Of a DNA stretch of 64,000 nt, positions 44,233 to 59,025 are shown in pieces. The first letter of the stretch is position 1. Every line of letters begins with the position of its first letter. Position numbers and translations under genes: made by a program. The notes below the pieces were generated by a model, which worked only from the letters and a program-made list of their open reading frames with translations, did no database searches and had not been told where the DNA came from. The stretch comes from Deltaproteobacteria bacterium (lineage in GTDB: Bacteria; CG2-30-53-67). Location of the stretch: contig JAADIO010000032.1 of NCBI GenBank assembly GCA_013151235.1, positions 2,166 to 66,165 of the forward strand. The letters run 5' to 3'.

Positions 44233-45574
44233 CGACGAAGAACCCTTTCGTCGCCTGCTGAAAAAAGAACTGACCCGGAAAGGGTTTTCCGTTGAGGTGG
44301 CCCCGGAAGGGGAAACGGCGCTGAAACTTTTGAAGGAGAGTGTCTTTGATCTGCTTCTCCTCGATGTTCTGATGCCGGGACTGGACGGAATTTCCGTGAT
44401 GAAACGGCTGCGTAAGGACCCGACGGCGCCGCCGGTGATCGTCTTGACGGGGAAGGCCACGATTGAAACGGCGGTCGAGGCGATGAAGAACGGCGCCTAT
44501 GACTATCTGACGAAACCCTACAAGCTTGATGAGTTGGAAATCGTCATCAACCGAGCCTGTGAATTCGGGAATTTGAAACACAAAAGCCGGGTACTTGAGC
44601 AGGAGCTGGTTCGAAAAGAATCCAAGGTTGAATTTATCGGGGAAAGCCCGCAGTTCCAGGCGATTTTGACGCTGATTCGCAAGATCGCCCCCACCGACTC
44701 CACGGTTCTTATCCAGGGGGAAAGCGGCACCGGCAAGGAGTTGGTGGCGAATGCCATCTGGCATCACAGCCGTCGGAATAATCTGCCTCTTATCGCCCTG
44801 AACTGTGCCACCCTTTCCGAAACCCTCATGGAATCGGAACTTTTCGGACATGAAAAAGGCGCCTTTACCACGGCTTACCGGACCAAGTACGGTATCGTAG
44901 AGGTTGCCGATAAGGGGACCCTCTTCCTGGATGAGGTGGCCGAGATGCCGATGGGACTCCAGGCCAAGCTCCTCCGCTTTCTTGATCGGGGGGAGTTCCG
45001 TCGTGTGGGCGGAAACAAGACCTTGCAGGTCGATGTCCGGATGATTGCTGCGACCAACAAGAATCTGGAGGAACGGGTTCGGCGGAAAACCTTTCGGGAA
45101 GATCTTTTCTATCGCCTCCATGTGATTAATATCAAGATTCCGCCGCTTCGCGAACGTCCGGAGGATATCCGGGACATTGCCCTTCATTTTGCCAAACAAT
45201 ATTCCCGCAAAATAGGAAAGTCGGTCTGGAAGATTGACGCCGATGCCCTGGGGATTCTCCGGCGTTATGCCTGGCCGGGAAATGTTCGGGAGCTGGAAAA
45301 TGAAATCGAGCGGAGTGTGATCCTCTGTGAAGGCGAGGCGATCGGTGTCCACGACCTTTCGATCGCCGATCGGGTTGCAACGCCCACCTCCGGGACGCAG
45401 CCGATGCTGGAGGAGATCGAGAAGGAGTGTATCCTCAGGGTCCTCCGGGAGACCGGCGGCAACCAGACCCGGGCCAGCAAAATCCTCGGCATCAACCGTA
45501 AAACCCTCTACCTAAAACTTCGCAAATACGGTGCACTTACATCGCAGGATAGCGAGATTCCCCCTGAGGTATAG
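44210..45574 (+). CDS. Sigma-54-dependent response regulator (NtrC family enhancer-binding protein)
   Basis: REC domain (ILVVDDEE...LLLDVLMPGLDG...KP). AAA+ domain with GESGTGKE Walker A and a GAFTTA (GAFTGA-type) loop. C-terminal Fis-type HTH (TRASKILGINRKTLYLKLRKYG). Start set at MARILVVDD, overlapping the kinase stop by 23 nt. Confidence 0.9.
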   Translation: MARILVVDDEEPFRRLLKKELTRKGFSVEVAPEGETALKLLKESVFDLLLLDVLMPGLDGISVMKRLRKDPTAPPVIVLTGKATIETAVEAMKNGAYDYLTKPYKLDELEIVINRACEFGNLKHKSRVLEQELVRKESKVEFIGESPQFQAILTLIRKIAPTDSTVLIQGESGTGKELVANAIWHHSRRNNLPLIALNCATLSETLMESELFGHEKGAFTTAYRTKYGIVEVADKGTLFLDEVAEMPMGLQAKLLRFLDRGEFRRVGGNKTLQVDVRMIAATNKNLEERVRRKTFREDLFYRLHVINIKIPPLRERPEDIRDIALHFAKQYSRKIGKSVWKIDADALGILRRYAWPGNVRELENEIERSVILCEGEAIGVHDLSIADRVATPTSGTQPMLEEIEKECILRVLRETGGNQTRASKILGINRKTLYLKLRKYGALTSQDSEIPPEV

Positions 45575-45678: not shown

Positions 45679-45694
45679 TGGCATGGGATTTGCT
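45679..45694 (+). promoter_or_regulatory. Sigma-54 (-24/-12) promoter of the methyltransferase island
   Basis: TGGCATgggatTTGCT. The extended string TTATGGCATnnnATTTGCTGTT is shared with the promoter at 35119. Confidence 0.65.
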
Positions 45695-45707
45695 GTTCTA
45701 TTACGGT

Positions 45708-46070
45708 ATGAACGATATCCTTTTATGCTCATCGGATCCGATCTTCATAAAGAATCTCTACGGGATTCTCCGGGAGGACGGTTACCGTGTCGATATTGCC
45801 GGCCATGCGTCTATGGCCGTCCGGATGGTTTTTGAAAAGAGTTTTGCAGCGGTGATCCTCGATTCCGATGCTGTCGGTATGTCTTCGGGGGAGGCTGCAC
45901 GTATCATTTTGAGAGTCATCTCGGGGATCCCTGTAATTCTTGCAGGGGAAAGTCTGTTACCCGAGGGGGCGTTTTCGATCAGCAAACCTCTGGATCTGGA
46001 GGAGGTCCTGGAGGTTCTTCGAACCGTTCGTTTAATTCATTTTCCGGAAAGGAGTGTGAGCGGCCTATGA
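45708..46070 (+). CDS. Stand-alone receiver (REC)-like protein
   Basis: ~120 aa. CheY-like pattern ILLCSSD...AVILDSD...PVILAG...ISKP, including a candidate phospho-acceptor Asp and a K-P pair. Start set at MNDILL because the sigma-54 promoter lies inside the longer track ORF. Confidence 0.45.
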   Translation: MNDILLCSSDPIFIKNLYGILREDGYRVDIAGHASMAVRMVFEKSFAAVILDSDAVGMSSGEAARIILRVISGIPVILAGESLLPEGAFSISKPLDLEEVLEVLRTVRLIHFPERSVSGL

Positions 46071-47098
46071 CACCACGAGAGATTATTTTGCAGGCCTTTG
46101 AAGGGGGGAAGCCCGAGCGGGTGCCGGTTTCTCTCTTCGGTGCCGGCATGTGGAGCATCAAGAGTTTTGAAAGCAGTTTCGAGGAGTTGTCGACCGATGC
46201 AGCGAAGATGTCGGATATGTTGGTGACCCTGTCGGACAAACTGTTGTGTGATATTGTCTATGCCGGCTCCGGGTACAACAACTTTCACGCCGCTGCGTTC
46301 GGCGGGGAGATCAAGTTTCGTTCCATGGGAGCGCCGGATCTGAAGGAACATCTCGTTTCCTCCGTGGAGGACATTGAAAAATTTGATCTATCGGCGCTCG
46401 ACAATGAAGCGACCCTCAATATCGTCAAGGATGCCCTGCATCGTACACGGGAACAGATCGGTGACAAATATGTGGTGAGCATGACGGCCTGGGGACCCTT
46501 TACCCTCGGGGCACGTTTCGTCGGGGAAGAGACGATGATGAAGGCGACCTTCAAGAATCCCGACCTGGTCCACCGGGTCACTGATTTTGCAACGGACCTT
46601 CTGATCCATCTTTATGAACCCCTGGTTGATGACGGGACGCTGGAAGTGATCAGTCTGGCCGATCCGACGGCCTCGGGGGACCTGATTTCCCGCAAGCAGT
46701 TTGAAAAGTTTGCCGTTCCCTACCTGAAAAAGTTTACCGACTGGGCCAGATCGAAGAAGGCGTATACCCTCCTGCACATTTGCGGGAATACGACGGACCG
46801 CCTGGATGTGATGCCCGGGACCGGGGCGAGCTGTATCAGCCTGGATCACAAAACCGATATCGGGAAGGCCTATGAGGCACTCCACGGAAGGATCTGTTTT
46901 GCCGGCAATGTGGATCCTGTCGGTGTCATGCTTCAGGGCTCGGTCGACGATGTGGAGAGGGCCTGCCGGGAGGTGATCGAAAGGGCCGGCACGGAGGGGG
47001 GGTTCGTTCTCATGCCGGGATGCGATATTCCGCCGACCGTCCCTTATGAAAATATTCGGAAATTCATCCAGGTCGCGCGGGAGTGGAAATTGACATAA
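46067..47098 (+). CDS. MtaA/CmuA-type (URO-D fold) methylcobamide methyltransferase, paralogue 1
   Basis: 343 aa. URO-D family pattern with LHICGNT (H-x-C) and MPGCDIPP (C) zinc ligands, as in methylcobamide:CoM methyltransferases. ATGA overlap with the REC gene. Confidence 0.8.
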   Translation: MTPREIILQAFEGGKPERVPVSLFGAGMWSIKSFESSFEELSTDAAKMSDMLVTLSDKLLCDIVYAGSGYNNFHAAAFGGEIKFRSMGAPDLKEHLVSSVEDIEKFDLSALDNEATLNIVKDALHRTREQIGDKYVVSMTAWGPFTLGARFVGEETMMKATFKNPDLVHRVTDFATDLLIHLYEPLVDDGTLEVISLADPTASGDLISRKQFEKFAVPYLKKFTDWARSKKAYTLLHICGNTTDRLDVMPGTGASCISLDHKTDIGKAYEALHGRICFAGNVDPVGVMLQGSVDDVERACREVIERAGTEGGFVLMPGCDIPPTVPYENIRKFIQVAREWKLT

Positions 47099-47251
47099 GG
47101 CGAAGAGGGGGTAGTAAGTCCGTGTTGTTCAGGTCCCATTGACCTTGTGAGAGAGGGGGTTGTGATGGGTACATTCTGGGAAAATCTCAAAAATATGTTT
47201 GTGCGGACTGTTCCTCCGGGAGCAGCCGGGCAATCGCAGAAAGGAGCTGCC

Positions 47252-47698
47252 ATGGCTGACGAAAAGAAGATGACGCTGGAAGAAGTAAATCAGTATATGC
47301 AGGAAAAGTGCGGGTTCGTGCCGAGGATGTTCAAGATTATCAATACCGTGACGCCGGAGCCCGGCCGAACCTTTGCCGATTTCTACGCGAGCATTTTCGG
47401 GGAGGGCGCACTTTCCAAGAGCGTCAAGGAATTGATGTTCATGTCCGGTGGTGTCGCCTACTGTTCGCCTCGCTGCATCATTCATGTCGTACCGGCGATC
47501 AATGCCGGTGCAACGTCGGAACAGGTCTTCGAGGCGGCGTCCGTCGGGATGATCCTGGCCGGTTTTGTCCCGAACGGTCCGGGAATTCCCTATGCCTTTG
47601 AATATGCCTTGAAGTGCATTGACATCGACACGAAGTTCCGGAAGGGCGAGGAGTGGGAATACCTGCCGCCCCCGAAATTTGATCACGGGATTTACTGA
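47252..47698 (+). CDS. Carboxymuconolactone decarboxylase / AhpD-like family protein
   Basis: ~148 aa. KELMFMSGGVAYCSPRCIIHV resembles the AhpD-core Cys/His segment, though the Cys spacing is atypical. The ATG at 47252 lies 5 nt after AAGGAG. Confidence 0.5.
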   Translation: MADEKKMTLEEVNQYMQEKCGFVPRMFKIINTVTPEPGRTFADFYASIFGEGALSKSVKELMFMSGGVAYCSPRCIIHVVPAINAGATSEQVFEAASVGMILAGFVPNGPGIPYAFEYALKCIDIDTKFRKGEEWEYLPPPKFDHGIY

Positions 47699-47775
47699 GC
47701 GCTTCAGCCGCGGGAGGGGGGAATCCCCCCTCTTTTGCCCCCCTCCTGCGGATTTTACCCATTTTTAATTTAAGG

Positions 47776-48747
47776 ATGATACATATGTTCACCTTTGAAA
47801 CGGAACAAAAGGTTTGCAAGATCGGCGGATTAAAGGTTGGAGGCCGACCGGCGGAAAATCCCCCTCTCCTGATTGCCTCCATGTTTCATAACAAGGACCG
47901 AATCCTGCAGGATCGTAAAGGGAATTTCGACCGCGTCCGGGCGACAGAACTGATCCGGAAGCAGGAAGAGCTGACCGAAGCCACCGGCATTCCCGGTATG
48001 GTGGCCATGATGGCCAATTCCGCCGGGGAAGCAAAGATCTATATCGATTTCTTTGTGGAAACCACCGACATGCCCTTCGCCATCGATATGTGGGTTGCCG
48101 AGAAACGGATGGCCGCGACGGAATATGTGGCGAAGTTAGGTCTGCAGGACCGGTTTGTCTATAACAGTATTACCCCCTGGGACAAGGACATTCCGGGGCA
48201 GGTGCAGCGGGTCAAAGAGCTCGGCATCAAACACGTATTTGTCCAGGCCTTTGATGATGCCGATCAGTCTCCGAAAGGACGGCTGACCTCATTGGAAAAA
48301 TTGCTTGATCAGGGAGCGGGTGATTTCGAGTCGGTCCTTGTCGATTCCTCGGTGATGAATCTTCCCGCTGCCTCTTTCTCCATGCTGGCAAACCGGATGA
48401 TCAAAGAGAAGTTAGGGCTCCCCTGCGGAAGCGCCTATTCCAATGGCACCCACATGTGGAAAGAGGCCAAGGAGATCTGGGGGCTCGACGGTTTCAAGGC
48501 GATGGATGCTGTGGCCCAGGGGATGTCGACGGCCCTCTGGTCGGATTTTAATTTTTACGGTCCCATCGTGACGGCGCCCCGGATCTTCCCCGGTGTGGCC
48601 ACGGCAAACATCCTGCTTTCGACCCTGGTCTTTGATGAAACCGGGGAGGTCTCGGAAAATGAAGACCTGCCGATCCGGAAGCACTTTTCGGAATTTCTTG
48701 AGAAGATGATCGCCGGTGGTGCAAGAAAAAAGGCGCAGGCCCGATAA
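47776..48747 (+). CDS. MtrH-like pterin-binding methyltransferase (methylcorrinoid:tetrahydrofolate/H4MPT type)
   Basis: 323 aa. CKIGGLKVGGRPAENPPLLIASMFH...AIDMW...YNSITPW resembles the tetrahydromethanopterin S-methyltransferase subunit H family. Confidence 0.75.
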   Translation: MIHMFTFETEQKVCKIGGLKVGGRPAENPPLLIASMFHNKDRILQDRKGNFDRVRATELIRKQEELTEATGIPGMVAMMANSAGEAKIYIDFFVETTDMPFAIDMWVAEKRMAATEYVAKLGLQDRFVYNSITPWDKDIPGQVQRVKELGIKHVFVQAFDDADQSPKGRLTSLEKLLDQGAGDFESVLVDSSVMNLPAASFSMLANRMIKEKLGLPCGSAYSNGTHMWKEAKEIWGLDGFKAMDAVAQGMSTALWSDFNFYGPIVTAPRIFPGVATANILLSTLVFDETGEVSENEDLPIRKHFSEFLEKMIAGGARKKAQAR

Positions 48748-48780
48748 TCGATAACCCTAATATCAGAAGGAGAAAACGTT

Positions 48781-49803
48781 TTGACGGAAACCATGACATC
48801 AAGAGAACGGGTACTGAGACTGTTTCGGGGGGAACCGACGGATCGTCCGGCCTGTTTCAGCGGGATGGGTAATGCGACAACGGAAGGGCTGAACCAGCTC
48901 GGCTACAAGTTTGCCCAGGTTCATCTCGATGCGAAACAGATGGCGGAGACGGCCATGACGACGCCCCGGCTTTTCGGGTTTGACGCCTGCGTCCTTCCGT
49001 TTGACCTCTGTGTCGAAGCGGAAGCGATGGGCGCAAGGATCAATACCTATTCGAACTCGGACGACCTGCTCTATCCCACGATCAAAGAGAAGGTAATCCA
49101 TGGCGAAGAGGAGATGGAGATCAACCTCCCCTCCGACCTGGTCACGCGCGGGCGGATCCCCCTCATGAAGGAGGCGATCGGGATCGCCAGGGAAACCATC
49201 GGAGAGACCGTGGCGATCGGTTCTTACCTGCTCGGACCGTTTACGCTCGCCGGTCAGATCATGGAACTGAACGATCTGCTGAAACTTTCTTTCAAGAAAC
49301 CGGACAAGGTCGGGAAACTTCTGGCCGATCTGACCTGCGTGATCGTGGCGGTTGCGAAGGAGTATGAAGCGGCCGGTGTTGACTACCTGACGGTACGGGA
49401 GATGGGTGCAACCTCCGACGTGTTGAGCCCCAGGGTTTTCAAGAGCCTGATACTGCCCCATCTCAAGAATATTTTCGAACAGATCAGTGTTCCCAGTGTG
49501 CTGCATATCTGCGGCAAGACGAACAACATCGTCGTTCCGATGGTGGAAACGGGTGCGACGGCCATCAGTGTTGACCAGAAGAATGATGTGGTCGACAGCC
49601 GGAAAAAGCTCGGATCCGATGCCCTGATTTTCGGGAACTACGACCCCTATAACGTGCTTGTTTCGGGTACGCCGGAACTGGTCAAAGAGGCGATGCAAAA
49701 GTGTTTGGAAGACGGCGTCAGTGCCGTCTGGCCCGGCTGTGATATCTGGCCCACGGTGCCGGCGGAGAATTTTAAGGCCATGATGGAAACCATGAATGAA
49801 TAG
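48781..49803 (+). CDS. MtaA/CmuA-type (URO-D fold) methylcobamide methyltransferase, paralogue 2
   Basis: 340 aa. RERVLRLFRGEPTDRPA N-terminus, with VLHICGKT (H-x-C) and WPGCDIWP (C) zinc ligands. TTG start after AAGGAGAA, or the ATG at 48793. Confidence 0.8.
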   Translation: MTETMTSRERVLRLFRGEPTDRPACFSGMGNATTEGLNQLGYKFAQVHLDAKQMAETAMTTPRLFGFDACVLPFDLCVEAEAMGARINTYSNSDDLLYPTIKEKVIHGEEEMEINLPSDLVTRGRIPLMKEAIGIARETIGETVAIGSYLLGPFTLAGQIMELNDLLKLSFKKPDKVGKLLADLTCVIVAVAKEYEAAGVDYLTVREMGATSDVLSPRVFKSLILPHLKNIFEQISVPSVLHICGKTNNIVVPMVETGATAISVDQKNDVVDSRKKLGSDALIFGNYDPYNVLVSGTPELVKEAMQKCLEDGVSAVWPGCDIWPTVPAENFKAMMETMNE

Positions 49804-49817
49804 TCAGGAGGCATGGA

Positions 49818-50513
49818 ATGGCAACTGAAGAGAGAACCCGGGAAATCCTGGAGAAAATGGAGAAAGCCGTGATTGAGTATGACGAAGATGCGGCCAAGGA
49901 GGGTGCCCAGGCGGCCCTCGATGAAGGGGTCAATCCCAATGATGCCATCTTCGACGGTCTGGTCAGCGGGATGCAGGAAGTCGGCAAGCTCTTTGAGGCC
50001 GAAGAGTATTTCGTCCCGGAGCTGCTCATGTGCGCCGATGCCCTTTATGCCGGTCTCGATATCTTAAAACCCCATGTGAAACAGCTCGACCTGGGGGTGA
50101 AAGGCTCGGTGGTGATCGGTACCGTGGAGGGAGATGTTCACGATATCGGGAAGAACATCGTGAAGATGATGTTCGATGTCGCCGGGTTTGAGGTCCATGA
50201 CCTGGGACGGGATGTGCCGCTGGATCAGTTTGTTGAGGAACAGATCAAAACCGATTCCGAACTGGTCTGCCTCTCCGCCATGATGACGACGACCATGATG
50301 GGGATGCAGAAGGTCATCGAGGACCTGAAGAAGAAGAATCCCGATATCAAGATCATGATCGGCGGTGCTCCCGTTTCCGGTGATATCGCCGAGAAATGGG
50401 GAGCGGACGGCTATGCCGATGACGCGACCAATGCCCTCGCAGATGCCATCAACATGGTCAGCTCTCTGAAAAAGATGAAGGAAGAAGCGGAAGCCAGGGA
50501 AAAACGGAAGTGA
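49818..50513 (+). CDS. Corrinoid (B12-binding) protein, MtaC/MtbC/MttC-like
   Basis: 231 aa. N-terminal helical cap domain, then a Rossmann B12 domain with GTVEGDVHDIGKN (DxHxxG), SAMMTTT (SxL-type) and IGGAPV (GG). Confidence 0.9.
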   Translation: MATEERTREILEKMEKAVIEYDEDAAKEGAQAALDEGVNPNDAIFDGLVSGMQEVGKLFEAEEYFVPELLMCADALYAGLDILKPHVKQLDLGVKGSVVIGTVEGDVHDIGKNIVKMMFDVAGFEVHDLGRDVPLDQFVEEQIKTDSELVCLSAMMTTTMMGMQKVIEDLKKKNPDIKIMIGGAPVSGDIAEKWGADGYADDATNALADAINMVSSLKKMKEEAEAREKRK

Positions 50514-51175
50514 GCAGTGCATTCTTGAAAAAGATGCTCCTCGGTTCCGGGGCGACCGTGGTGGGTGTGGCGGAACTGGATGCGTATCTTGACGGAGAGA
50601 TCCGTCATCTCAACCGAGGGGTTTCCATCGCGGTGGACCGGACGCTTCGGGAAGATACCCTGAAACATCTGGGCCGGCTGCAGAAAAAAGTGGTCCGCTA
50701 TCTGAAAGGGAAGGGATTCCGTACCCTCAGTATCCCCCCTGATTCGGACCGCATCCGGAATAAGTTTGTTGCCGAACTTTATTCCCTTTTGACCCACAAG
50801 ATGGCAGCCACCTGCGCGGGGATCGGCTGGATCGGGCGGAATGGGTTACTGATCAGTCCCCATTTCGGGCCGCGGCTTTCCCTGGCGACGGTCCTGACCG
50901 ATGCGCCCCTGAAGAGCGATATTCCCTATGAACAGAGCCGTTGCGGCAATTGCCGGCTTTGTGTTGACTACTGCCCGTCGAAGGCGATCACGGGCAAAAC
51001 CTGGTCCCGGCGGGACCCTTACAGCGGCCTGGTCAAGCCCCACCGGTGTCGTGTACACAAAGAGGGGGCCCGGGGAGTGACGGATCGGCCCAATTGCGGT
51101 CTCTGCCTGCAGATCTGCCCCTACGGGCGGGCGAAAGGGAGGACCAAACCGAAAGATGTTATGGAGATTGTATAA
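50510..51175 (+). CDS. QueG/RdhA-like 2x[4Fe-4S] ferredoxin-domain protein
   Basis: 221 aa. GWIGRNGLLISPHFGPRLSLATVLTDAPL is an epoxyqueuosine-reductase-like core. Two cluster motifs are present, CGNCRLCVDYCP and CGLCLQICP. 4-nt overlap with the corrinoid protein gene. Confidence 0.6.
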   Translation: MSSAFLKKMLLGSGATVVGVAELDAYLDGEIRHLNRGVSIAVDRTLREDTLKHLGRLQKKVVRYLKGKGFRTLSIPPDSDRIRNKFVAELYSLLTHKMAATCAGIGWIGRNGLLISPHFGPRLSLATVLTDAPLKSDIPYEQSRCGNCRLCVDYCPSKAITGKTWSRRDPYSGLVKPHRCRVHKEGARGVTDRPNCGLCLQICPYGRAKGRTKPKDVMEIV

Positions 51176-51177
51176 AG

Positions 51178-53154
51178 ATGAGCAGCAAATATAAAGTGAA
51201 TTTTCAGCCCTCGGGAAGTCGGGGGGAAGTGGATGCAGGGAAAACCCTCCTTGATGCGGCCCAGCGTTTAGGGGTTGATCTGGAATCAGTCTGTGGCGGC
51301 AAGGGGACCTGCGGGAAATGCAAGGTCCGTGTTGAGGAAGGATATTTTGAAAAAGATGCCATGGAATCAAGAATGTCCCATCTGTCTCCTCTGACGGACG
51401 TGGAACGCAAATTCATCAAACCGGAAGACGGACCCCGAATGCGTTTGGCCTGTGCCGCCGAGGTGCGGGGGGATGTGAAACTTTTCGTGCCGGAAAAGTC
51501 CCGTGCCGGGAAACAGATCGTTCGCAAGGCCGCAAAAGATATTACGATCGCCCTCGACCCCGCCGTGAAAAAATATTGTATCCGGCTGGATGCCCCGACC
51601 CTGCACGATCTTTCCAAGGGGGATCTTGAACGGATTCTGGGGGCGCTGAAAATGGAGTACAACCTGGAAAACCTTGCCATAGACTATCTGGTCCTCCAGA
51701 AGCTCCAGGATATTCTTCGGGCCGGGAACTGGGAGGTGACGGTTTCGGTCTGGAAAGGCAAAGAGATCATCAAGGTGGAGCCGGATTTTGTGGACGTCTC
51801 CTACGGTCTGGCCGTGGATGTCGGGACGACGACGGTGGCAGCCTATCTGTGTGATCTGAACACGGGCAAGGTGCTTAACACCGAATCGATGATGAATCCC
51901 CAGGTCCCGTACGGCGAAGATGTCATGTCGAGGATTACTTACGCCATGACCCATGACGACGGTCTTGCGATCATGCAGAAGGCAATCATCGAGGGCTTAA
52001 ACGATCTGATTGAGAAGATTACCGCCGACATCCGTTCCAACGGAACGCCCGGCGGTACCTCCATCGTCGATATGACGGTGGTTTTTAATACCGCCATGCA
52101 TCACATCTTCCTGGGATTCAACCCGGTCTACATCGGACGGTCTCCCTTTATTCCTGCCGTGCAGGATTGTGTTGATCTCAAGGCACGGGATCTGGGACTT
52201 CAAATCAATGAAGCTTCCTACATTCATGTCCTTCCCATTGAGGCCGGTTTTGTCGGCGCCGACAATGTGGGGGTTCTCATCGCCGAAGAGCCGTACAATT
52301 CCGAGGACAATGTCCTGATTATCGACATCGGGACGAACGGTGAACTCCTCCTCGGGAACAAGCATGCGGTCTGTTCCACTTCCTGCGCTACGGGACCGGC
52401 CTTTGAAGGGGCCCAGATCAAGTTCGGAATGCGAGCCGCCCCGGGAGCGATTGAAAAGGTCCGGATCGATCCGGAGACGAAAGAGCCACAGTACAAGGTG
52501 ATCGGCAAGGCCGACTGGCATACCCATATCAAGGATGTCAATGCCAAGGGGATCTGCGGTTCCGCCATCATCGACGTGATTGCCGAGATGTTCAAGGCGG
52601 GAGTCATCGACAAGTCCGGGAAATTCGTCAAGGATCTTGACATACCCCGCATCCGGAAGGATGCCGACGGCAAACCGGAGTACGTCCTGGCCTGGGCGGA
52701 TGAAACCTCCATCGGGAGCGACATCACCGTGACGCAGGGGGATGTCCGGGCGTTGCAGCTCGCCAAGGGGGCACTCTACGCCGGGGCGAAACTGATGATG
52801 CAGAAGATGGGGATCGAAAAACTCGACCGGGTGGTTCTGGCGGGGGCCTTCGGGAGTCATATCAATACGGAGGCCTCGATGACCCTCGGGATGTTCCCCG
52901 ATTGTGCCATCGAAAAGGTCTATGCCGTGGGGAATGCCGCCGGCGACGGGGCGATCATGGCCCTGCTGAACCTGGGGAAACGACGTGAGGCCGGCGAAAA
53001 GGCCCGGTGGGTCCGGTTCCTGGAGATTGCCGTGGAGCCGGAATTTGAAAAGGAATTCATGAAGGCGATGCATATTCCGCACATGAAGGATCCTTTTCCC
53101 AATCTCAAGTCGTTGCTGGAGAAGGACCATTTGCCGGTGACGATCAAGGGGTGA
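51178..53154 (+). CDS. Reductive activator of corrinoid proteins (RACo / ASKHA-fold, N-terminal [2Fe-2S] ferredoxin)
   Basis: 658 aa from MSSKYKVNF. Plant-type ferredoxin motif CGGKGTCGKCKV...C, then a large ASKHA ATPase region (GLAVDVGTTTVAAYL, IIDIGTNGE). Start moved from 51046 to the ATG at 51178, 2 nt after the upstream stop. Confidence 0.85.
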   Translation: MSSKYKVNFQPSGSRGEVDAGKTLLDAAQRLGVDLESVCGGKGTCGKCKVRVEEGYFEKDAMESRMSHLSPLTDVERKFIKPEDGPRMRLACAAEVRGDVKLFVPEKSRAGKQIVRKAAKDITIALDPAVKKYCIRLDAPTLHDLSKGDLERILGALKMEYNLENLAIDYLVLQKLQDILRAGNWEVTVSVWKGKEIIKVEPDFVDVSYGLAVDVGTTTVAAYLCDLNTGKVLNTESMMNPQVPYGEDVMSRITYAMTHDDGLAIMQKAIIEGLNDLIEKITADIRSNGTPGGTSIVDMTVVFNTAMHHIFLGFNPVYIGRSPFIPAVQDCVDLKARDLGLQINEASYIHVLPIEAGFVGADNVGVLIAEEPYNSEDNVLIIDIGTNGELLLGNKHAVCSTSCATGPAFEGAQIKFGMRAAPGAIEKVRIDPETKEPQYKVIGKADWHTHIKDVNAKGICGSAIIDVIAEMFKAGVIDKSGKFVKDLDIPRIRKDADGKPEYVLAWADETSIGSDITVTQGDVRALQLAKGALYAGAKLMMQKMGIEKLDRVVLAGAFGSHINTEASMTLGMFPDCAIEKVYAVGNAAGDGAIMALLNLGKRREAGEKARWVRFLEIAVEPEFEKEFMKAMHIPHMKDPFPNLKSLLEKDHLPVTIKG

Positions 53155-53164
53155 GACGTCGAAA

Positions 53165-53482
53165 ATGACCCGTGTGAAAATCGACCCGGGCGTCTGTGGT
53201 TTTCCCGCTCTCGTGACGGTCGAAAAAAAGGACAGGCAGCACTTTCGGGTAACGATCGAGTCCAATTGTGAAATGGTACGGAAATTGGGAGAGGAAATTG
53301 CATCCCTGACGATGCAGGATGCCTTCATCCGGTTTTCCGATAACCGGGTCTATGAGAAGGCCTCAACCTGTCTGAAACACACGGCCTGTCCGGTCCCGTC
53401 GGGCATCCTGAAGGCCCTGGAGGTTGAGGCCGGTCTGGCGGTGCCGCGGAACGTAACGGTGGAATTTCTTGCCGGGGAGTGA
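53165..53482 (+). CDS. Small conserved-Cys hypothetical protein
   Basis: 105 aa with four Cys (C11, C35, C69, C75). Translationally coupled to the next gene by a 4-nt overlap. Confidence 0.4.
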   Translation: MTRVKIDPGVCGFPALVTVEKKDRQHFRVTIESNCEMVRKLGEEIASLTMQDAFIRFSDNRVYEKASTCLKHTACPVPSGILKALEVEAGLAVPRNVTVEFLAGE

Positions 53483-54744
53483 CAGTGATGAGCGACTATC
53501 TTCTGCATTGCCGGAAATGCGGTGCTCTTTTGCAGCCGCAAGAGTCCGCTTCCGGGGTTCATTGTCCCGATGCCTTGATGAAAAGTGAATTTCCCGACCG
53601 GCGGTTCCGCCTTGAGGGGCGTCGGGGGATCTGGCGCTTCAACTGGCTTCCGGTGCATGCACCCCGTGAAGATACCGCCGCACCGGTGGTTTATCACGCG
53701 GAGGGGCTGGGGCGGCGTCTTGGACTTCGGCATCTCTTTGTCGTATTCAACGGTTTCCGGCCGGAAAAGGGGGCGGAGATCGAGACCTGTACCTTCAAAG
53801 AGTTCGAGGCCGAGGTTGTTCTGCAAAACGCACGGGAACTTGGAAAGGGCGGCCTCGTCGTCGCCTCGGCGGGGAATACCGCCCGCGCCTTTGCCCACCT
53901 TTCGATTCGGACCGATTTCCCCGTGTTCATTGTGGTTCCACGCATGTGTCTTCATGAGATGTGGTTTCTGAAGTCGAAGGAGTCCGTTCCGACGGCTGTC
54001 CTGCAGGACGGTGACTATGCCGACGCCATCGATGTGGCCGAGCGGATCGCCCGGATTTCAGGTATTCCCTTCGAAGGAGGGGTACGCAATTCGGCCAAGC
54101 GGGACGGACTCGGTGTCGTACTGATGGAAGCGGTCTCCTTCCTCGGCCGCCTGCCCGATGCCTATTTTCAGGCAGTCGGGAGCGGCGCCGGGGCGGTGGC
54201 CACCTGGGAGATGGCGGAACGGTTTTTGCGGGACGGCCGTTTCGGGAACCGGCTTCCCCGTCTCCACCTGGCACAGAATCTCCCCTTTGCACCCATGTTT
54301 CATGCCTGGAGACGGGGGGAACGGAATCTGAAACCTGAGGACCTTGATCCGGGCCTGATTGAGAAGATTTCCACCCGGGTTCTGTCCAGTCGTTATCCCG
54401 CCTATTCGATTCTGGGGGGGGTCTACGATGCCTTGACGGCATCCGGGGGGAACATGTACGGGATTACCAACGGAGGGATGGCCGAGGCCCGGACGCTCTT
54501 CGAAGAAACGGAAGGGGTCGATATCGTTCCCGCGTCGGCCATTGCCCTGGCGGCACTGAAAGAGGCCGTAGCGGCGGAAGAGGTCTCTCCCGACGAGCTG
54601 ATCCTGCTCAATATCACCGGGGGTGGGGAAAGGGCCATCCGGCGTGCGGGACGTGCCGTCCCGGTGGCGGGAGACGCAATCTCGAAAAATATTACGGATG
54701 ATGAAATCGAAGAACTTTTATGCACAGTCCTGAAAAAGAGCTGA
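53479..54744 (+). CDS. Threonine-synthase-fold PLP enzyme, cysteate synthase-like
   Basis: 421 aa. N-terminal Cys ribbon (HCRKCG...HCPD), TFKEFEA (PLP-Lys region), ASAGNTARAF and LNITGGG. Its size, ribbon and pairing with ComDE mirror archaeal cysteate synthase. I cannot exclude a different beta-replacement specificity. Confidence 0.55.
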   Translation: MTVMSDYLLHCRKCGALLQPQESASGVHCPDALMKSEFPDRRFRLEGRRGIWRFNWLPVHAPREDTAAPVVYHAEGLGRRLGLRHLFVVFNGFRPEKGAEIETCTFKEFEAEVVLQNARELGKGGLVVASAGNTARAFAHLSIRTDFPVFIVVPRMCLHEMWFLKSKESVPTAVLQDGDYADAIDVAERIARISGIPFEGGVRNSAKRDGLGVVLMEAVSFLGRLPDAYFQAVGSGAGAVATWEMAERFLRDGRFGNRLPRLHLAQNLPFAPMFHAWRRGERNLKPEDLDPGLIEKISTRVLSSRYPAYSILGGVYDALTASGGNMYGITNGGMAEARTLFEETEGVDIVPASAIALAALKEAVAAEEVSPDELILLNITGGGERAIRRAGRAVPVAGDAISKNITDDEIEELLCTVLKKS

Positions 54745-55856
54745 TTTCGATTCTGAAAGGGGCGGGCGTCGATCTTCTAGCGACCCTTCCCTGTGACCGG
54801 GTGCGCAACCTGATCGCCCTTGCGGATGCATCGATTGACCGCATCCCTCTGACCCGGGAAGAAGACGGCGTCGGGATTTGTGCCGGAGCGGCCCTGGGCG
54901 GGCGGCGGCCGGCCATGATTGTTCAAAGCTCCGGGATCGGCAATATGATCAACGCCCTTCTCTCCCTGACCGGATTCTATGAACTTCCCTTGGCACTTTT
55001 CGTCAGTCAGCGGGGAGTCTATAAGGAGGGGATCGACGCCCAGGTTCCGATGGGCAAGGTCCTGCCGGGGCTTTTTGAATCCGTGGGGATCGGTTACACT
55101 CTGATCGACCGGTCCGAAGCGATCCCCGCCATCGGGAAGGAACTGGAGTCTCTCTACCGGGAGAAACGGATCCATGCTTTCCTGCTCAGCCCGGCCCTCT
55201 GGGAAGGCTCCCCCCTGGAGATTTCCCAGAGCCTCAAACGCCGCCATTGTGAAGCGATCGATCCTGAACGGGGTCGGGAGAATCCGGCCCCGGTCCTGAC
55301 CCGCTATGGGGTCCTTTCGACCCTCTGTCCCGAACTGGAAGGGCAGGCGGTGATCTGCAATCTGGGGGTCCCGTCGAAGGAACTTCATGCCCTCCTTCCC
55401 CAACCATCGAATTTCTACATGCTGGGCAGCATGGGATTGGCGACGCCCATCGGTCTCGGTGTGGCCTTCTCAACGGACAAACCGGTTTTCGTCATTGACG
55501 GGGACGGCAGTCTGCTTATGAATCCCGGGACCCTGGCGACGGTCGCCATGGCCCGACCGGGGAACCTGACCATTATTGCTGTTGACAATGCCTCCTACGG
55601 TTCCACGGGGGATCAACCGACCCTGACGGCCGGTTGTGTCGATCTGGAACTGGTGGCCCGTGGATTCGGTATCTGTAACTCTGTGAAGGCTGCGTCCCGG
55701 GAGGAGCTGCGGGAGGCGTTGCAGACCCCCTTCGGCGGTGCCCTCTTTGTCCATGCCCTTGCCCTGCCCGGAAATGCCGCCGTCCCCAATATCCCCCTGG
55801 GTGCCCGGGAGATCAAGGAGGGGTTCCAGGCGTTCCTGGAATCCGGGAGGTTATAG
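54720..55856 (+). CDS. comDE: Fused sulfopyruvate decarboxylase alpha+beta (ComD-ComE), ThDP-dependent
   Basis: 378 aa. The N-half DLLATLPCDRV...TREEDGVGICAGAALGGRRPAMIVQSSGIGNMINALLSL closely matches the ComD pattern. The C-half GSMGLATPIGLGVA...VIDGDGSLLMNPG...NASYGSTG carries the ThDP motif and matches ComE. The homologous phosphonopyruvate decarboxylase is the alternative assignment. Confidence 0.7.
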   Translation: MHSPEKELISILKGAGVDLLATLPCDRVRNLIALADASIDRIPLTREEDGVGICAGAALGGRRPAMIVQSSGIGNMINALLSLTGFYELPLALFVSQRGVYKEGIDAQVPMGKVLPGLFESVGIGYTLIDRSEAIPAIGKELESLYREKRIHAFLLSPALWEGSPLEISQSLKRRHCEAIDPERGRENPAPVLTRYGVLSTLCPELEGQAVICNLGVPSKELHALLPQPSNFYMLGSMGLATPIGLGVAFSTDKPVFVIDGDGSLLMNPGTLATVAMARPGNLTIIAVDNASYGSTGDQPTLTAGCVDLELVARGFGICNSVKAASREELREALQTPFGGALFVHALALPGNAAVPNIPLGAREIKEGFQAFLESGRL

Positions 55857-55891: not shown

Positions 55892-56731
55892 TCAAGGATC
55901 GGGGAGACGGCCACCGTCCGGAGTTGAAAAGTGATCGGGGTTTTTCCGATACTTTTCCGGGATGGTTGCGATCCTCGGTACCGGGCTCAAGGGGTATTGA
56001 TCGACCAGCAGCGTGCAGCCGTAACTCTTCCGTAATTGTTCCGCCGTCAAGACCTCTCCGGGGCGTCCGGTCTTTTCAATTTCCCCCTCCTTCAGAAGAA
56101 GAAGGCGGTCTCCGTAGAGGGCCGCCAGGTTCAGGTCATGGGAAATCATGATCACCGTGATCCGCCGGGTGCGGCGGAGCCGTTCCATCAGATCCATAAT
56201 GCGGGATTGGTGGGAAGGATCGAGGGAGGCCGTCGGTTCATCGAGAAAGATGATCCGGGGTTGCTGGCAGATGGCCCGGGCGATCATGACTCGCTGCCGT
56301 TCTCCGCTGCTTAACTGATCCAGCCGTCTTTCCGCCAGGTGTGTAATGTCGGTAAAGTGCATCGCCTCTTCGGCAATTCGGTAATCCTCACGTTTTTCCA
56401 TGCTCCAAAGCCCGAGATGAGGAGAGCGGCCCATCAGGACCGTTTCCGTAACGGGAAAGGGGAAATCAAGGGGGACCTGCTGTGGGACCACGGCGAGAAG
56501 ACGGGAGAGGGATCGCCGTGAATAATGATGAAGCGCTTTGCCCAGAATGTTAATCTCCCCCCTTTGCGGCTGGATCATGCCGGCGCAGGCCTTGAGTAGT
56601 GTGGTTTTTCCCGCGCCGTTGGGGCCGATGATGATGAAGAATTCCTCCTCCGGGACGTGGAAGGTGAGCCCGTGAAGAATCCCTTTATGTGCATAGTCGA
56701 GATGGAGGTTTTCGACGGAGAGGGCGGTCAT
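55892..56731 (-). CDS. ABC transporter ATPase, BtuD/FecE-type (cobalamin/iron-chelate uptake)
   Basis: 279 aa. Walker A GPNGAGKTT, signature LSSGERQRV and Walker B IIFLDEPT. Confidence 0.85.
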   Translation of the reverse strand: MTALSVENLHLDYAHKGILHGLTFHVPEEEFFIIIGPNGAGKTTLLKACAGMIQPQRGEINILGKALHHYSRRSLSRLLAVVPQQVPLDFPFPVTETVLMGRSPHLGLWSMEKREDYRIAEEAMHFTDITHLAERRLDQLSSGERQRVMIARAICQQPRIIFLDEPTASLDPSHQSRIMDLMERLRRTRRITVIMISHDLNLAALYGDRLLLLKEGEIEKTGRPGEVLTAEQLRKSYGCTLLVDQYPLSPVPRIATIPEKYRKNPDHFSTPDGGRLPDP

Positions 56732-57735
56732 TGGTTTGCTCTCCAGAGAAGGTAGACAAAGAGGGGCGCTCCGATCATGGCCGTGATGATTCCCACGGGC
56801 ATTTCCCCTCCGACCGACAGGATGCGTGCCAGGAGGTCGCAGAGAATCAGGTAGGTTGCCCCCCCCAGGATGGAAGCGGGGATCAGCAGGCGATGATCCG
56901 GTCCCAGCACCAGCCGCAGGAGGTGCGGAATCACCAGTCCGACGAATCCCACCAGGCCGGACTGACAGACCACCAGGCTGACCATCAACGACGTCAGGAC
57001 CAGGAGAACCAGGGTGACGGTTTTGACATTTACCCCCATGGAGAGAGCGCTTTCCTTTCCCATTACGAGGAGATTCATCGGACGGGCCAGCAGAAAGATG
57101 ACCAGGAAACAGAGCAGGATCGGAAAGAGGACCGGCAGTTGCCGGGTGCTGACCCGGGAGAGATCTCCCATCAGCCAGAAGAGAATCTGTTGGACCTGTT
57201 CGGATCGGGTAATCGAGATCAGGAAGAGAATGACGGCGGCGCAGAAGGCATTCATCATGACGCCTCCGAGGAGCAGTGCATCCCTGCTCTGCCGGGGCCG
57301 CCCCATGACGAGCAGGAGGATCAGGCCCAGGACCGCCATACTGCCGGTGAAGGCCGCCAGGGGGACTCCCGGAAAAGGGGAAAGCCCGGCCAGCAGCCCG
57401 CCGATCGCCCCGATTGCCGAACCGCCCGAAATGCCGAGGATGTAGGGTTCGGCCAGGGGGTTTCGCAGGAGTGCCTGAAAAACCAGCCCGCCGAGGGAGA
57501 GGGTGGAACCGACGGCGGCTGCCAGGATGACCCGGGGAATCCGGATGCGCCGGATGATGGTGGCGGCGATTGAGTTCTGATCTCCGTAGCCGGCCAGGAT
57601 GGCGAGAGTCCCGGACAGGTCGCTGCCGGAAGAGCCCATGGAGACGCCGAGGAAGGCCGCGATCATCAGCAGTGTGCCGAAGAAGAGTGTGATCGTGATG
57701 AGCTTCCGGGGGAGAGGATGGAACCTAACGTTCAT
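56728..57735 (-). CDS. ABC transporter permease, BtuC/FecCD family
   Basis: ~335 aa, ~9-10 TM helices, with the AAAVGSTLSLGGLVFQALLRNPLAEPYILGISGG motif. Start set at MNVRF (57735). 4-nt overlap with the ATPase gene. Confidence 0.85.
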   Translation of the reverse strand: MNVRFHPLPRKLITITLFFGTLLMIAAFLGVSMGSSGSDLSGTLAILAGYGDQNSIAATIIRRIRIPRVILAAAVGSTLSLGGLVFQALLRNPLAEPYILGISGGSAIGAIGGLLAGLSPFPGVPLAAFTGSMAVLGLILLLVMGRPRQSRDALLLGGVMMNAFCAAVILFLISITRSEQVQQILFWLMGDLSRVSTRQLPVLFPILLCFLVIFLLARPMNLLVMGKESALSMGVNVKTVTLVLLVLTSLMVSLVVCQSGLVGFVGLVIPHLLRLVLGPDHRLLIPASILGGATYLILCDLLARILSVGGEMPVGIITAMIGAPLFVYLLWRANQ

Positions 57736-58690
57736 CGGTGCGCTTCCCTTTTTTCGCAACCTCCGGGTGAATAATCGCCAGCAGGGTCTCCAGTCCGTCG
57801 ACCAGGTGGGGAGTCGGACGATCAAAGAGGTCGGAATCGACAAGATAGATCTTTCCCTTCCGGACGGCCGGGATTTGCGGCCACTTCCGCCAGCTCCCTT
57901 TCAGCCATTGCGGGGTATGACCGCCCGCCATGGAACTGATGATGACAATCTCCGGTTGAAGGGTCAGAACCTTCTCCCAGGTCAACCGGGGATAAGGGGC
58001 CTTCCCTGCGGTCACATTGGTTCCCCCTGCCAGGGTGATCAGTTCGTTGATGGAGGTCCGGCTTCCCACGGAGACCATCGGTTCGGCATCAATCTGAAAA
58101 AAGACACGAGGTCGGGTGTGGGTCCGGGCGACACGGGAGCGGACCCGGTCGATCCGCCGTTCCATATTCCGAACGATTTCCTCCGCACGGGTGGAAGCGT
58201 TCAGAAGATCTCCGATCCCTTTGATAGTCGTCATGATCCCCTGAAGGTTTAATGGATTGACGACATAAACCGGGATTCCGAGGGCCTCAATTCGCGCCAC
58301 GATATATTTGGGATTGCCGTCTTTGATGGCCAGGCAGAGATCGGGGTGGAGAGCAACGATCCGTTCCAGGTCGAGGTGGACATAGGAGCCGACCCGGGGC
58401 AGGGCACGGGCCGCTTCCGGGGTTGTACTGAATCGGGTGACCCCTTTGAGGCGGGGGCCTTTGTTCAGAAGAAAAATGATTTCCGTGAGACTCGGTGCCA
58501 AGGCGATCACCCGCCGGGGGGAGGCCGGCACATCGACCCTGCGGCCCACCGGATCCGTGAGCGTACGGGCTGAGGCAATGGGAAGGAAAAGTTGGAGTGC
58601 GAGGAAGATCACCGGCAGGAGTATGCCGGGGGAAACTCTCCGAAAAGAGCCCTGTCGTCGATGGAGAATGTGCAGGAACGCAGGTATCAT
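57725..58690 (-). CDS. Periplasmic substrate-binding protein, BtuF/cluster-A type
   Basis: 321 aa. Signal-anchor N-terminus, then PRRVIALAPSLTEIIF...LHPDLCLA...PEIVIISS, typical of cobalamin/siderophore-binding proteins. Preceded by a cobalamin riboswitch. Confidence 0.8.
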   Translation of the reverse strand: MIPAFLHILHRRQGSFRRVSPGILLPVIFLALQLFLPIASARTLTDPVGRRVDVPASPRRVIALAPSLTEIIFLLNKGPRLKGVTRFSTTPEAARALPRVGSYVHLDLERIVALHPDLCLAIKDGNPKYIVARIEALGIPVYVVNPLNLQGIMTTIKGIGDLLNASTRAEEIVRNMERRIDRVRSRVARTHTRPRVFFQIDAEPMVSVGSRTSINELITLAGGTNVTAGKAPYPRLTWEKVLTLQPEIVIISSMAGGHTPQWLKGSWRKWPQIPAVRKGKIYLVDSDLFDRPTPHLVDGLETLLAIIHPEVAKKGKRTDER

Positions 58691-58762: not shown

Positions 58763-58820
58763 GATGTCCCTTTTTATCCACAGAACCGGTCGGTGAATCT
58801 CTGACCTCGAAGATTCGGCC

Positions 58821-58985
58821 GCTCATTTCCAGGCAGGTCTTCTGACTCTCGGTTCGTCCTACTTACCGTGTCTTCCCATCGTATTTCCCGACAGTGACAT
58901 CTTTCGGTTTTCGTCCCCGATCACAGCGGCGGGCCCGTCCCCGTTTTTACGGGATTCCCTTCTCAGCTCCTCATGGAAGCACCTG
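58821..58985 (-). promoter_or_regulatory. Cobalamin (B12) riboswitch aptamer
   Basis: The minus-strand RNA contains AAGGGAAUCCCGUAAAAACGGGGACGGGCCCGCCGCUGUGA, ...CACUGUCGGGAA...GAUGGGAAG..., and a canonical B12 box AGUCAGAAGACCUGCC (58832-58847). Confidence 0.9.
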
Positions 58986-58996
58986 AAAATATCCGA

Positions 58997-59025
58997 ACTT
59001 TACTTGAAAAACCCTGCAGAGTCAA
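58997..59025 (-). promoter_or_regulatory. Sigma-70-type promoter candidate for the riboswitch-btuFCD transcript
   Basis: Minus strand TTGACT, a 17-nt spacer, then TAAAGT. The predicted start lies just upstream of the aptamer 5' end. Confidence 0.5.

Follow-up and report, generated by a model that had tools for sequence, protein, structure and literature searches.

Coenzyme M (CoM) is regarded as a hallmark of archaeal methane and alkane metabolism, and in bacteria it has been assigned only to alkene and epoxide oxidation, a view repeated in 2026 (PMC13315622). The stretch described here, a window of 64,000 nucleotides from a Deltaproteobacteria bacterium (assembly GCA_013151235.1, contig JAADIO010000032.1, positions 2,166 to 66,165), carries eleven co-directional genes (45708-55856, + strand), in which a corrinoid methyltransferase cassette is followed by genes for cysteate synthase (CS) and a fused sulfopyruvate decarboxylase (ComDE). 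The cassette encodes two methyltransferases of the URO-D fold (URO-D1 and URO-D2), an MtrH-like pterin methyltransferase, a corrinoid protein, the reductive activator RACo, and receiver-like, AhpD-like, QueG/RDH-like and DUF6951 proteins. An earlier note on this DNA had proposed either a bacterial pathway of methyl transfer to CoM or a similar thiol, or an organosulfonate pathway coupled to methyl transfer; comparative genomics favors transfer to CoM, through conservation of the array and linkage of the cassette to three alternative CoM-supply modules, and this three-way linkage considerably strengthens the proposal. The best explanation of the whole, to which we give a probability of roughly 0.6, is that the operon would join corrinoid methyl transfer to the archaeal 'type 2' sulfoacetaldehyde route, with CoM as the thiol substrate. 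No publication describing this system was found, nor, as the note had supposed, any characterized operon of this composition, in a literature search of incomplete coverage.

Methanogen MtaA, MtbA and MtsA, together with Mtr or CmtA, share with the operon a URO-D fold with an HxC...C zinc site, an MtrH homolog and a corrinoid protein; URO-D2 passes the cut-offs of both the MtaA/CmuA family and the 'methylcobalamin:CoM methyltransferase' subfamily, and CS and ComDE are arranged as in Methanosarcina MA3297-98 (PMC12068725). Unlike the methanogen systems, the operon has a bacterial host, the DNA examined holds no MCR, coenzyme B-related gene or MMP16, the methyltransferase equivalog scores lie far below their cut-offs, the nearest relatives are bacterial and the pterin is presumably tetrahydrofolate; Mtr is membrane-bound, whereas the system here is soluble. 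The archaeal type-2 CoM pathway is matched by a CS above its equivalog cut-off and by a fused ComDE gene directly after it, as in Methanosarcinales, Methanoperedens and Methanocella, but MMP16 is not adjacent here, and relatives have a cytochrome b/HdrD-like pair 5' of CS and an SsuA-like protein downstream.

Bacterial three-component corrinoid systems (Desulfofundulus kuznetsovii Mta for methanol, O-demethylases, Cdm for chloromethane and mec for dichloromethane) resemble the cassette in their parts list of URO-D-family protein, methyltransferase 2 (MT2), corrinoid protein, RACo, DUF protein and two-component regulators (bioRxiv 10.1101/2021.08.30.458270; PMC9768040; PMC13222342; PMC5770442), and a related core of URO-D2, MtrH, corrinoid protein, RACo and DUF6951 occurs in Desulfotomaculum metagenome-assembled genomes (MAGs). 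The cited descriptions mention no CoM biosynthesis or sulfonate import genes, whereas the URO-D1/AhpD-like pair here co-varies with a CoM-supply module; CdmB is without zinc (PMC13222342), and mec, compared like Cdm by its description, is alike in composition only, no cation transporter gene being present in the operon. Bacteria that make and use CoM are represented by the Xcb pathway of Xanthobacter autotrophicus (PMC9457059), and Xcb-type genes adjoin the same cassette in other lineages; the window, however, lacks Xcb genes, neither alkene monooxygenase nor epoxyalkane:CoM transferase genes were seen, and the proposed use is methyl transfer rather than epoxide carboxylation. Methionine synthase (MetH) likewise combines zinc-thiolate and pterin barrels with a B12 domain and a reactivation function, and its two N-terminal barrels are mimicked by a natural MtrH-like::URO-D2-like fusion of 662 aa in L090 (9900-11888, +; L-numbers denote homologous loci fetched for comparison), an argument for joint action of both activities. 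Here, by contrast, each part is a polypeptide of its own, the thiol barrel belongs to the URO-D type and not the homocysteine-binding barrel of MetH, and reactivation depends on ATP and RACo instead of S-adenosylmethionine and flavodoxin. The linkage suggests a bacterial use of this 'methanogen cofactor' of which no report was found, the kinds of component (MtaA-type CoM transfer, bacterial corrinoid cassettes) being already known.

Three genomic settings with probable coenzyme M supply

Homologous loci were gathered by a CS profile scan with one genome per species, by tblastn with the window proteins and by contig look-ups. The CS scan picked up about 25 loci from Nitrospirota with 55-82% identity, others from archaea with 39-52%, and bacteria with CS only. 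Gene order is the same throughout the array on every sufficiently long contig, in about 25 species of Nitrospirota/Thermodesulfovibrionia; named relatives carrying the cluster are mostly labeled as this group, with a few MAGs labeled Betaproteobacteria, Sulfotelmatobacter, Thermoleophilia and Armatimonadetes. The sulfonate genes are no chance neighbor, given their translational coupling to the methyltransferase genes and the conservation of the array across these species. Outside this clade, L090 and L091 hold orthologs of URO-D1 (44-48% identical), the AhpD-like protein (64-65%) and URO-D2 (53%) along with MtrH-like, RACo and DUF6951 genes, and an ABC importer is embedded among them whose lipoprotein binding protein matches best the SsuA family, then SaoX and taurine-binding proteins. 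L090 also holds, besides this SsuA-type importer, Rieske, cytochrome b and cytochrome c genes and a NarI-like and HdrD-like pair. A metagenome scan seeded with the URO-D1 orthologs of these two loci gave 80 further loci, which were then annotated.

The cassette is found in three settings. The window type (a) ends in CS and ComDE, with or without a preceding cytochrome b/HdrD-like pair. In type (b), DUF6951 is followed by binding-protein, permease and ATPase genes at the position of CS-ComDE, as in the Thermodesulfovibrionales relatives L130 (a Thermodesulfovibrionales MAG) and L146, with cassette proteins at 58-83% identity. Type (c) has the order DsrE, AhpD-like, URO-D1 (one or two copies), DUF6951, RACo, URO-D2, corrinoid protein and MtrH, flanked by Xcb-type genes for ComA/XcbB phosphosulfolactate synthase (173 bits to PDB 1qwg), argininosuccinate-lyase-like (ASL-like) and adenylosuccinate-lyase-like (ADL-like) proteins and a D-cysteine-desulfhydrase-like pyridoxal phosphate (PLP) enzyme; in precomputed Pfam annotation these read DUF7714-ComA-Lyase_1/ASL_C2-Lyase_1/ADSL_C-PALP on one strand directly 5' of the cassette, which matches the Xcb pathway (PMC9457059), DUF7714 being by its position probably XcbA. 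In L173/L121 (2785-5724), the two lyase genes of the Xcb-like cluster, ASL-like and ADL-like, are separated by an N6/N4 DNA methyltransferase gene and an uncharacterized gene of 446 aa.

A census covered 100 loci with a URO-D1 ortholog, 44 of which have six or more of the eight core cassette families. Exactly one supply module is carried by 33 of the 44, the totals given being 20 for CS/ComDE, eight for Xcb and seven for the importer, without overlaps; in each of the other 11 the locus breaks off within 4 kb of the cassette, which leaves the census without an informative counter-example. In the subset fetched through the methyltransferase genes, which is unbiased for CS, the counts for CS, Xcb, importer and none are 4, 6, 7 and 11. 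Cassettes with a URO-D1 ortholog (such as L090 and L091) co-vary with a CoM-supply module, and L088 and L092, in which the first URO-D protein is non-orthologous, show none.

Cysteate, sulfopyruvate and sulfoacetaldehyde are the intermediates of the CS-ComDE route (PMC12068725), and the Xcb route passes through phosphosulfolactate, sulfoacrylate, sulfopropionyl-cysteine and sulfoethanethioaldehyde (PMC9457059); on these accounts, CoM would be the only compound common to both among characterized routes, and for this reason the cassette very probably needs CoM. The exchange of biosynthesis and uptake genes at the same position is classically taken to mean that the operon needs a metabolite and does not consume a growth substrate. 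Methanesulfonate or another methylated sulfonate as growth substrate was set aside on the ground that biosynthesis genes replace the importer at that position. Sulfite is in addition a very poor leaving group from carbon, a chemical ground against such a substrate.

Genes and control of the operon

Features are collected in Table 1. Family assignments rest on Pfam and NCBIfam profile scans against curated cut-offs, and they bear out all the gene identities proposed in the earlier note, the receiver-like match being weak; an ortholog of the receiver-like protein heads the operon in many relatives. By score only URO-D2, and not URO-D1, belongs in the MtaA/CmuA family: URO-D1 stays below both cut-offs that URO-D2 passes (TIGR01463, 176.5 against 235.4; NF004889, 171.1 against 244). 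URO-D2 matches the M. mazei MtaA structures 4ay7 and 4ay8 over its full length (157 bits), CoM-bound MtaA being among these structures, and falls short of the equivalog cut-offs of MtaA_Meth (242 against 400) and MtbA (171 against 600). Its H242, C244 and C320 are invariant among 26 orthologs and align with the HICG and PGC motifs of MtaA 4ay7; in URO-D1, H237, C239 and C319 are invariant among 20. The MtrH-like protein lies within the MtrH family by score without reaching the MtrH and MtgA equivalog cut-offs, and would catalyze methyl transfer between methyl-corrinoid and a pterin, presumably tetrahydrofolate.

Among the accessory proteins, RACo has all four of its Pfam domains in the order Fer2, linker, middle and ASKHA C-terminal. 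The QueG/RDH-like 2x[4Fe-4S] protein, with eight invariant cysteines, is a probable electron carrier, and its gene is missing in some relatives. In the C-x3-C-x2-H motif protein of AhpD type, C110, H113 and C157 are invariant and C106 is kept in 89% of orthologs; the upstream start at 47165 (MGTFWENLK) is conserved in several of them. A homolog search with DUF6951 returned matches from the same clade only. The protein is part of the methyltransferase cassette, since it accompanies the core where sulfonate genes are absent, in the Desulfotomaculum MAGs, and a part in CoM synthesis was rejected for it on the same ground.

Table 1. Coordinates of the operon, its regulators and neighbors, and of SsuA-like genes in related loci (bit scores, with cut-offs where given)
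Feature	Position	Strand	Support
PAS-GAF-PAS sensor histidine kinase	41680..44232	+	Pfam PAS/GAF/HisKA/HATPase_c
NtrC-type sigma-54 activator (REC + AAA+ + HTH_8)	44147..45574	+	Pfam Sigma54_activat 232 bits
Sigma-54 -24/-12 promoter TGGCATgggatTTGCT	45679-45694	+	Pattern TGGCAYN5TTGCW
Divergent stand-alone receiver-like protein	45708..46070	+	Response_reg 21 bits, weak, under Pfam cut-off
URO-D1, MtaA/CmuA-like zinc methyltransferase	46067..47098	+	URO-D 208 bits
AhpD/CMD-like protein	Start uncertain (47147, 47165 or 47252), to 47698	+	CMD 24 bits
MtrH-like pterin methyltransferase	47776..48747	+	NF002142 333.7 bits vs 287; PF02007 185 bits
URO-D2, MtaA/CmuA-family zinc methyltransferase	48781..49803	+	NF004889 256.4 vs 244; TIGR01463 238.6 vs 235.4
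Corrinoid protein, B12-binding_2 + B12-binding, DxHxxG (DVHDIGKN)	49818..50513	+	TIGR02370 212 bits, just under 215
QueG/RDH-like 2x[4Fe-4S] protein	50510..51175	+	Fer4_16; partial matches TIGR00276, TIGR02486
RACo-type ATP-dependent reductive activator, N-terminal [2Fe-2S]	51178..53154	+	Fer2 + RACo_linker + Raco_middle + RACo_C_ter
DUF6951, small Cys3His protein	53165..53482	+	IscU/SufE-like fold, predicted
Cysteate synthase (O-phosphoserine + sulfite -> L-cysteate)	53479..54744	+	TIGR03844 448.7 bits vs 324.9
Fused sulfopyruvate decarboxylase ComDE (sulfopyruvate -> sulfoacetaldehyde)	54720..55856	+	TIGR03845 + TIGR03846
btuD-btuC-btuF corrinoid ABC importer	55892..58690	-	Convergent with operon
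Cobalamin riboswitch 5' of btuF, full-length	58815..59001	-	RF00174 105 bits vs 31.5
SsuA/NMT1-family protein without signal peptide, L020	13250-14230	-	
SsuA/NMT1-family protein without signal peptide, L005	9351-10310	-	
SsuA/NMT1-family protein without signal peptide, L030	12299-13210	+	
SsuA/NMT1-family protein without signal peptide, L032	8507-9418	+	

The earlier note had read the PLP enzyme as a CS and the last gene as a ComDE, naming ordinary threonine synthase and phosphonopyruvate decarboxylase as the identities to be feared, and on family scores both of these were rejected: the best threonine synthase model gives the CS protein 68.9 against a cut-off of 303, and the phosphonopyruvate decarboxylase model gives ComDE 191.1, far below 312.5. 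The alpha domain of ComDE is above its cut-off (TIGR03845, 179.2 against 147.95) and the beta domain just below (TIGR03846, 206.2 against 221.5). CS and ComDE are each 39-52% identical to archaeal counterparts that are likewise paired, and the pairing is conserved in Nitrospirota and archaea. In a neighbor-joining tree the Nitrospirota CS form one clade, sister to the enzymes of Hydrothermarchaeota and Pyrohabitans. Recent joint transfer of the MtaA-like genes and CS-ComDE from methanogens was rejected in view of the bacterial nearest relatives of URO-D2.

All eleven genes of the earlier note were recovered at their coordinates on the + strand from the open reading frame listing and translation. 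Its account of the junctions holds for four overlaps (receiver-like/URO-D1, corrinoid protein/QueG-like, DUF6951/CS and CS/ComDE, the CS gene overlapping its neighbors by 4 and 25 nt, respectively), four short gaps of 2, 10, 14 and 33 nt and one of 77 nt; its 153-nt gap is obtained only with the AhpD-like start at ATG 47252 and becomes 66 nt with the start at 47165. The sigma-54 promoter proposed there is upheld by the rarity of the pattern, with two occurrences in the window for an expected 0.02, and by its recurrence directly 5' of the first gene in L001, L004, L010 and L084. The second perfect match (TGGCATCGTATTTGCT, 35119-35134, +) stands 54 nt 5' of a DUF5658 gene (35188-35634). None of the terminator-like matches of a scan inside the operon is convincing, and this, with the gene overlaps and the conserved promoter, supports the operon structure, which counts with gene identities, conservation and the three-way linkage among the things shown; that this unit, under sigma-54/NtrC control, joins two functions carries the confidence of the whole explanation. 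The histidine kinase is a probable sensor for the operon; a histidine kinase-NtrC pair also precedes the cassette in L128 and L162, and a regulator of the same NtrC kind lies upstream in L001.

Proposed methyl transfer and its rivals

Under the explanation preferred here, two zinc-type MtaA-family methyltransferases and an MtrH-like methyl-tetrahydrofolate methyltransferase would share one corrinoid protein, and the RACo activase and the ferredoxin-like, AhpD-like thiol and small IscU-like Cys3His proteins would serve the cassette. CS, a housekeeping aminotransferase and ComDE would in turn provide sulfoacetaldehyde, the immediate precursor of CoM. URO-D1 and/or URO-D2 would hold the cell's own CoM as a zinc thiolate, and this CoM would exchange a methyl group with the methyl-Co(III) form of the corrinoid protein, which the MtrH-like enzyme would connect to methyl-tetrahydrofolate. 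The net outcome would be a soluble exchange between methyl-tetrahydrofolate and methyl-CoM, like a split methionine synthase or a cytoplasmic Mtr, and in most relatives the cytochrome b/HdrD-like pair might reduce CoM disulfides or complete the reductive thiolation of sulfoacetaldehyde. Because a methyl-pterin passes its methyl group to a thiol with a large release of free energy (about -30 kJ/mol for the Mtr reaction), methyl groups would probably flow toward methyl-CoM. Since the His/Cys/Cys zinc site found in thiol-methylating enzymes of MtaA type is retained in URO-D1 and URO-D2 alike, CoM as their thiol substrate is the most economical reading and, judged by sequence, most likely the right one. 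The last step of CoM synthesis and the physiological methyl donor or sink we infer rather than observe. A gene for methanol-type MtaB lies upstream of the cassette, with genes for a corrinoid protein and a further URO-D protein, in L155 (- strand, divergent) and in L089 (207-4947, a Desulfotomaculum MAG), a hint that methanol may be one methyl source.

A number of observations weigh against this reading, and each of the rival explanations draws on some of them. Those that bear on the linkage itself begin with the census, which is biased in one part, CS itself having served to fetch the CS-type loci L001-L028. CS-ComDE also occurs without the cassette in L017 (about 4.5 kb upstream examined) and L023 (10 kb), and cassettes with another first URO-D enzyme (L088, L089 and L092, the URO-D cluster of the last labeled Dehalococcoidales) show no CoM module nearby. 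The linkage might be genomic and not functional, CS-ComDE making a sulfonate for a taurine or isethionate solute, a sulfonolipid head group or sulfite trapping, beside a cassette for ordinary tetrahydrofolate-based methylotrophy on methanol, methoxy, methylthio or halomethane compounds. The isolated CS-ComDE pairs fit this, as do CS genes without ComDE in many bacteria (e.g., Bacteroidota, Spirochaetota and Aminicenantes), the MtaB gene adjoining the cluster in L155, and similar cassettes without nearby sulfonate genes in L092 and in the Desulfotomaculum MAGs, where the order is URO-D, corrinoid protein, RACo, MtrH, URO-D2 and DUF6951. We nevertheless hold it to be quite improbable, given that the genes are translationally coupled, that the three mutually exclusive modules have in common only the delivery of CoM or a sulfonate and that one of them is present in 33 of 33 informative loci; the Xcb route, moreover, bypasses sulfoacetaldehyde, taurine and isethionate (PMC9457059).

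Further points against CoM as methyl acceptor concern the methyltransferases. The nearest relatives of URO-D2 outside the clade (53-40% identity), ranked against a library of 50%-identity representatives, belong to MAGs of Desulfotomaculum, Anaerolineae, Desulfobacterales and Dehalococcoidales, archaea entering the ranking only at 37%, and bacterial MtaA homologs are usually taken to methylate tetrahydrofolate (PMC5770442). In the absence of MCR, methyl-CoM has no obvious fate. By our own reading of the alignment, URO-D2 keeps one of the six residues lining the MtaA thiol pocket (PMC13618148), a criterion of CoM specificity that was tried and gives no decision either way. This lack of pocket conservation would suit a cassette that needs CoM as a low-potential thiol reductant for its zinc and corrinoid enzymes, or as substrate of the HdrD-like/cytochrome b pair in a thiol-disulfide loop, with methyl groups passing only from a donor to tetrahydrofolate (URO-D as methyltransferase 1, MT1, and the MtrH-like protein as MT2). 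Bacterial URO-D proteins are commonly substrate-specific MT1 with an MtrH-like or other MT2, as in mec (bioRxiv 10.1101/2021.08.30.458270; PMC9768040) and Cdm (PMC13222342), and thiol-redox proteins (AhpD-like, DsrE and HdrD-like) abound near the cassette. Such a role is unlikely in our judgment, for the HxC...C zinc site of the thiol-methylating MtaA, MtbA and MtsA is invariant in both URO-D proteins, and the HdrD-like pair, absent from all eight Xcb-type loci, from four of the seven importer-type loci and from the window, cannot explain the need for CoM. We also know of no precedent for a dedicated cofactor used solely as a reductant.

The remaining points against the preferred reading concern how CoM would be completed and taken up. 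The archaeal CoM synthase MMP16/ComF (PMC12068725) is not encoded nearby, though it adjoins CS/ComDE in many archaea: no homolog (TIGR03287) was detected in the window, nor in the 10 kb around CS of any locus from Nitrospirota, and it was found beside CS/ComDE in 12 other loci. The substrate of the importer is deduced only from SsuA_fam matches below the cut-off. The sulfonate required might then be a CoM analog or a methylated sulfonate substrate instead of CoM, with the products of the Xcb-like and CS-ComDE genes related but non-identical, and the lack of a ComF/MMP16 gene, the sub-threshold binding-protein matches and the co-occurrence of a cytoplasmic SsuA-like protein with CS-ComDE in Nitrospirota, Hydrothermarchaeota and Methanoregula would all agree with this. 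It is very unlikely, however: a consumer would not synthesize its own growth substrate, Xcb-type loci hold the complete characterized set (counting DUF7714 as XcbA by position only), and zinc-MtaA chemistry suits a thiol. Under reducing conditions CoM forms from sulfoacetaldehyde and sulfide without an enzyme, and L-ASST can replace MMP16 (PMC12068725).

In most Nitrospirota relatives two extra genes lie between DUF6951 and CS (L001 8138-10004; L084 15350-17240). The first encodes a cytochrome b of about 225 aa with four invariant histidines and a weak DsrM match, and the second, which overlaps the start of the CS gene, a 400-aa HdrD-like protein (Fer4_8 + 2xCCG, 2x[4Fe-4S], complete CCG cysteine motifs) with best matches to TfrB, DsrK and GlpC; by sequence, the two form a HdrED/DsrMK-like membrane module. 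Its absence from the window and from L005 is another of the points that count against the preferred reading. The HdrD-like gene is present in 18 of 20 CS-type loci, three of seven importer-type and none of eight Xcb-type, and the pair was accordingly rejected as the cause of the CoM requirement. Given its tie to CS-type loci, it is a candidate for a last step without MMP16, a reductive thiolation in place of MMP16/XcbA; that it reduces CoM disulfides, or stands in for these enzymes, is speculation.

Neighboring genes and significance

An SsuA/NMT1-family protein without signal peptide (starting M..RIGHLSTFYHT) goes with CS-ComDE in other loci, though not in the window. In Hydrothermarchaeota and Pyrohabitans its gene follows ComDE with translational coupling, in Methanoregula it is found near CS, and in at least ten Nitrospirota loci it is convergent downstream, with no ABC permease or ATPase gene beside it; the product may be a cytoplasmic sulfonate-binding protein or a pathway enzyme. 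Between it and ComDE, L020 (12457-13056, -), L005 (8748-9335, -) and 13 other loci encode a low-complexity protein of about 200 aa, without family match and with a conserved C-terminal tail (WLILRAIKLYVQEYKKTGRL in L020), which we would guess to be a regulator. MMP16 lies beside CS on two contigs with bacterial labels: 'Faecalibacterium sp. CAG:74' (L080 8110-11751, with ComDE), the CS of which groups with Methanomethylophilaceae, and 'Desulfobacteria' (L051 8670-11167), with a CS that groups with ANME-1; archaeal DNA placed in the wrong bin, or a recent transfer, is suggested by this.

Genes for CobW/COG0523 metallochaperone GTPases recur beside the cassette (L005 7865-8782, -; L084 5335-6210, -; L126 10158-11048, +; L092 2962-3993, +), which fits delivery of zinc (or cobalt) to the URO-D enzymes. 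A DsrE-family sulfur-relay gene often precedes the AhpD-like and URO-D1 genes (L086 6369-6779, L091 2641-3036 and many Xcb-type loci, e.g., L112 27-581). In the window, a cobalamin riboswitch precedes the btuFCD genes that converge on the operon's end, so that corrinoid uptake is regulated beside a corrinoid-dependent system; BtuD and BtuC are also encoded downstream in the closest relative, L004, and it is plausible that the importer supplies the operon's cofactor. The earlier note's view that the rest of the window is bacterial agrees with the family scans (exosortase/exopolysaccharide, secretin, type II secretion/type IV pilus-like, NtrC, PAS-GAF kinase, DnaK/DnaJ and BtuFCD). Positions 1-33250 hold an exopolysaccharide/exosortase block (Wzy-like, carbamoyltransferase, asparagine synthase, glycosyltransferases, radical SAM/SPASM and EpsH exosortase), followed by the type II secretion/type IV pilus-like set with its secretin, and both seem unrelated to the operon; PilZ, GH57, AsmA, DnaK and DnaJ genes are also present.

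A broader proposition, which we regard as about equally apt to hold or to fail, is that CoM would be a working cofactor of widespread corrinoid methyl transfer in bacteria that are strict anaerobes but not methanogens (MAGs of Thermodesulfovibrionia and Anaerolineae, and metagenome lineages without assignment), obtained in three convergent ways, by transferred archaeal CS-ComDE, by Xcb genes or by uptake; the cytochrome b/HdrD-like complex would then be a new, MMP16-independent means of finishing or recycling CoM in CS-ComDE lineages, and methyl-CoM would occur outside methane and alkane metabolism. If so, CoM would have a third biological role, in sulfur-cycling Nitrospirota and other anaerobes, and candidates would be at hand for the still debated last step of its synthesis. 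CoM biosynthesis genes and 'MtaA' annotations in metagenomes, often read as signs of methanogens, would need rereading, and CoM itself would possibly be exchanged or scavenged in anoxic sediments.

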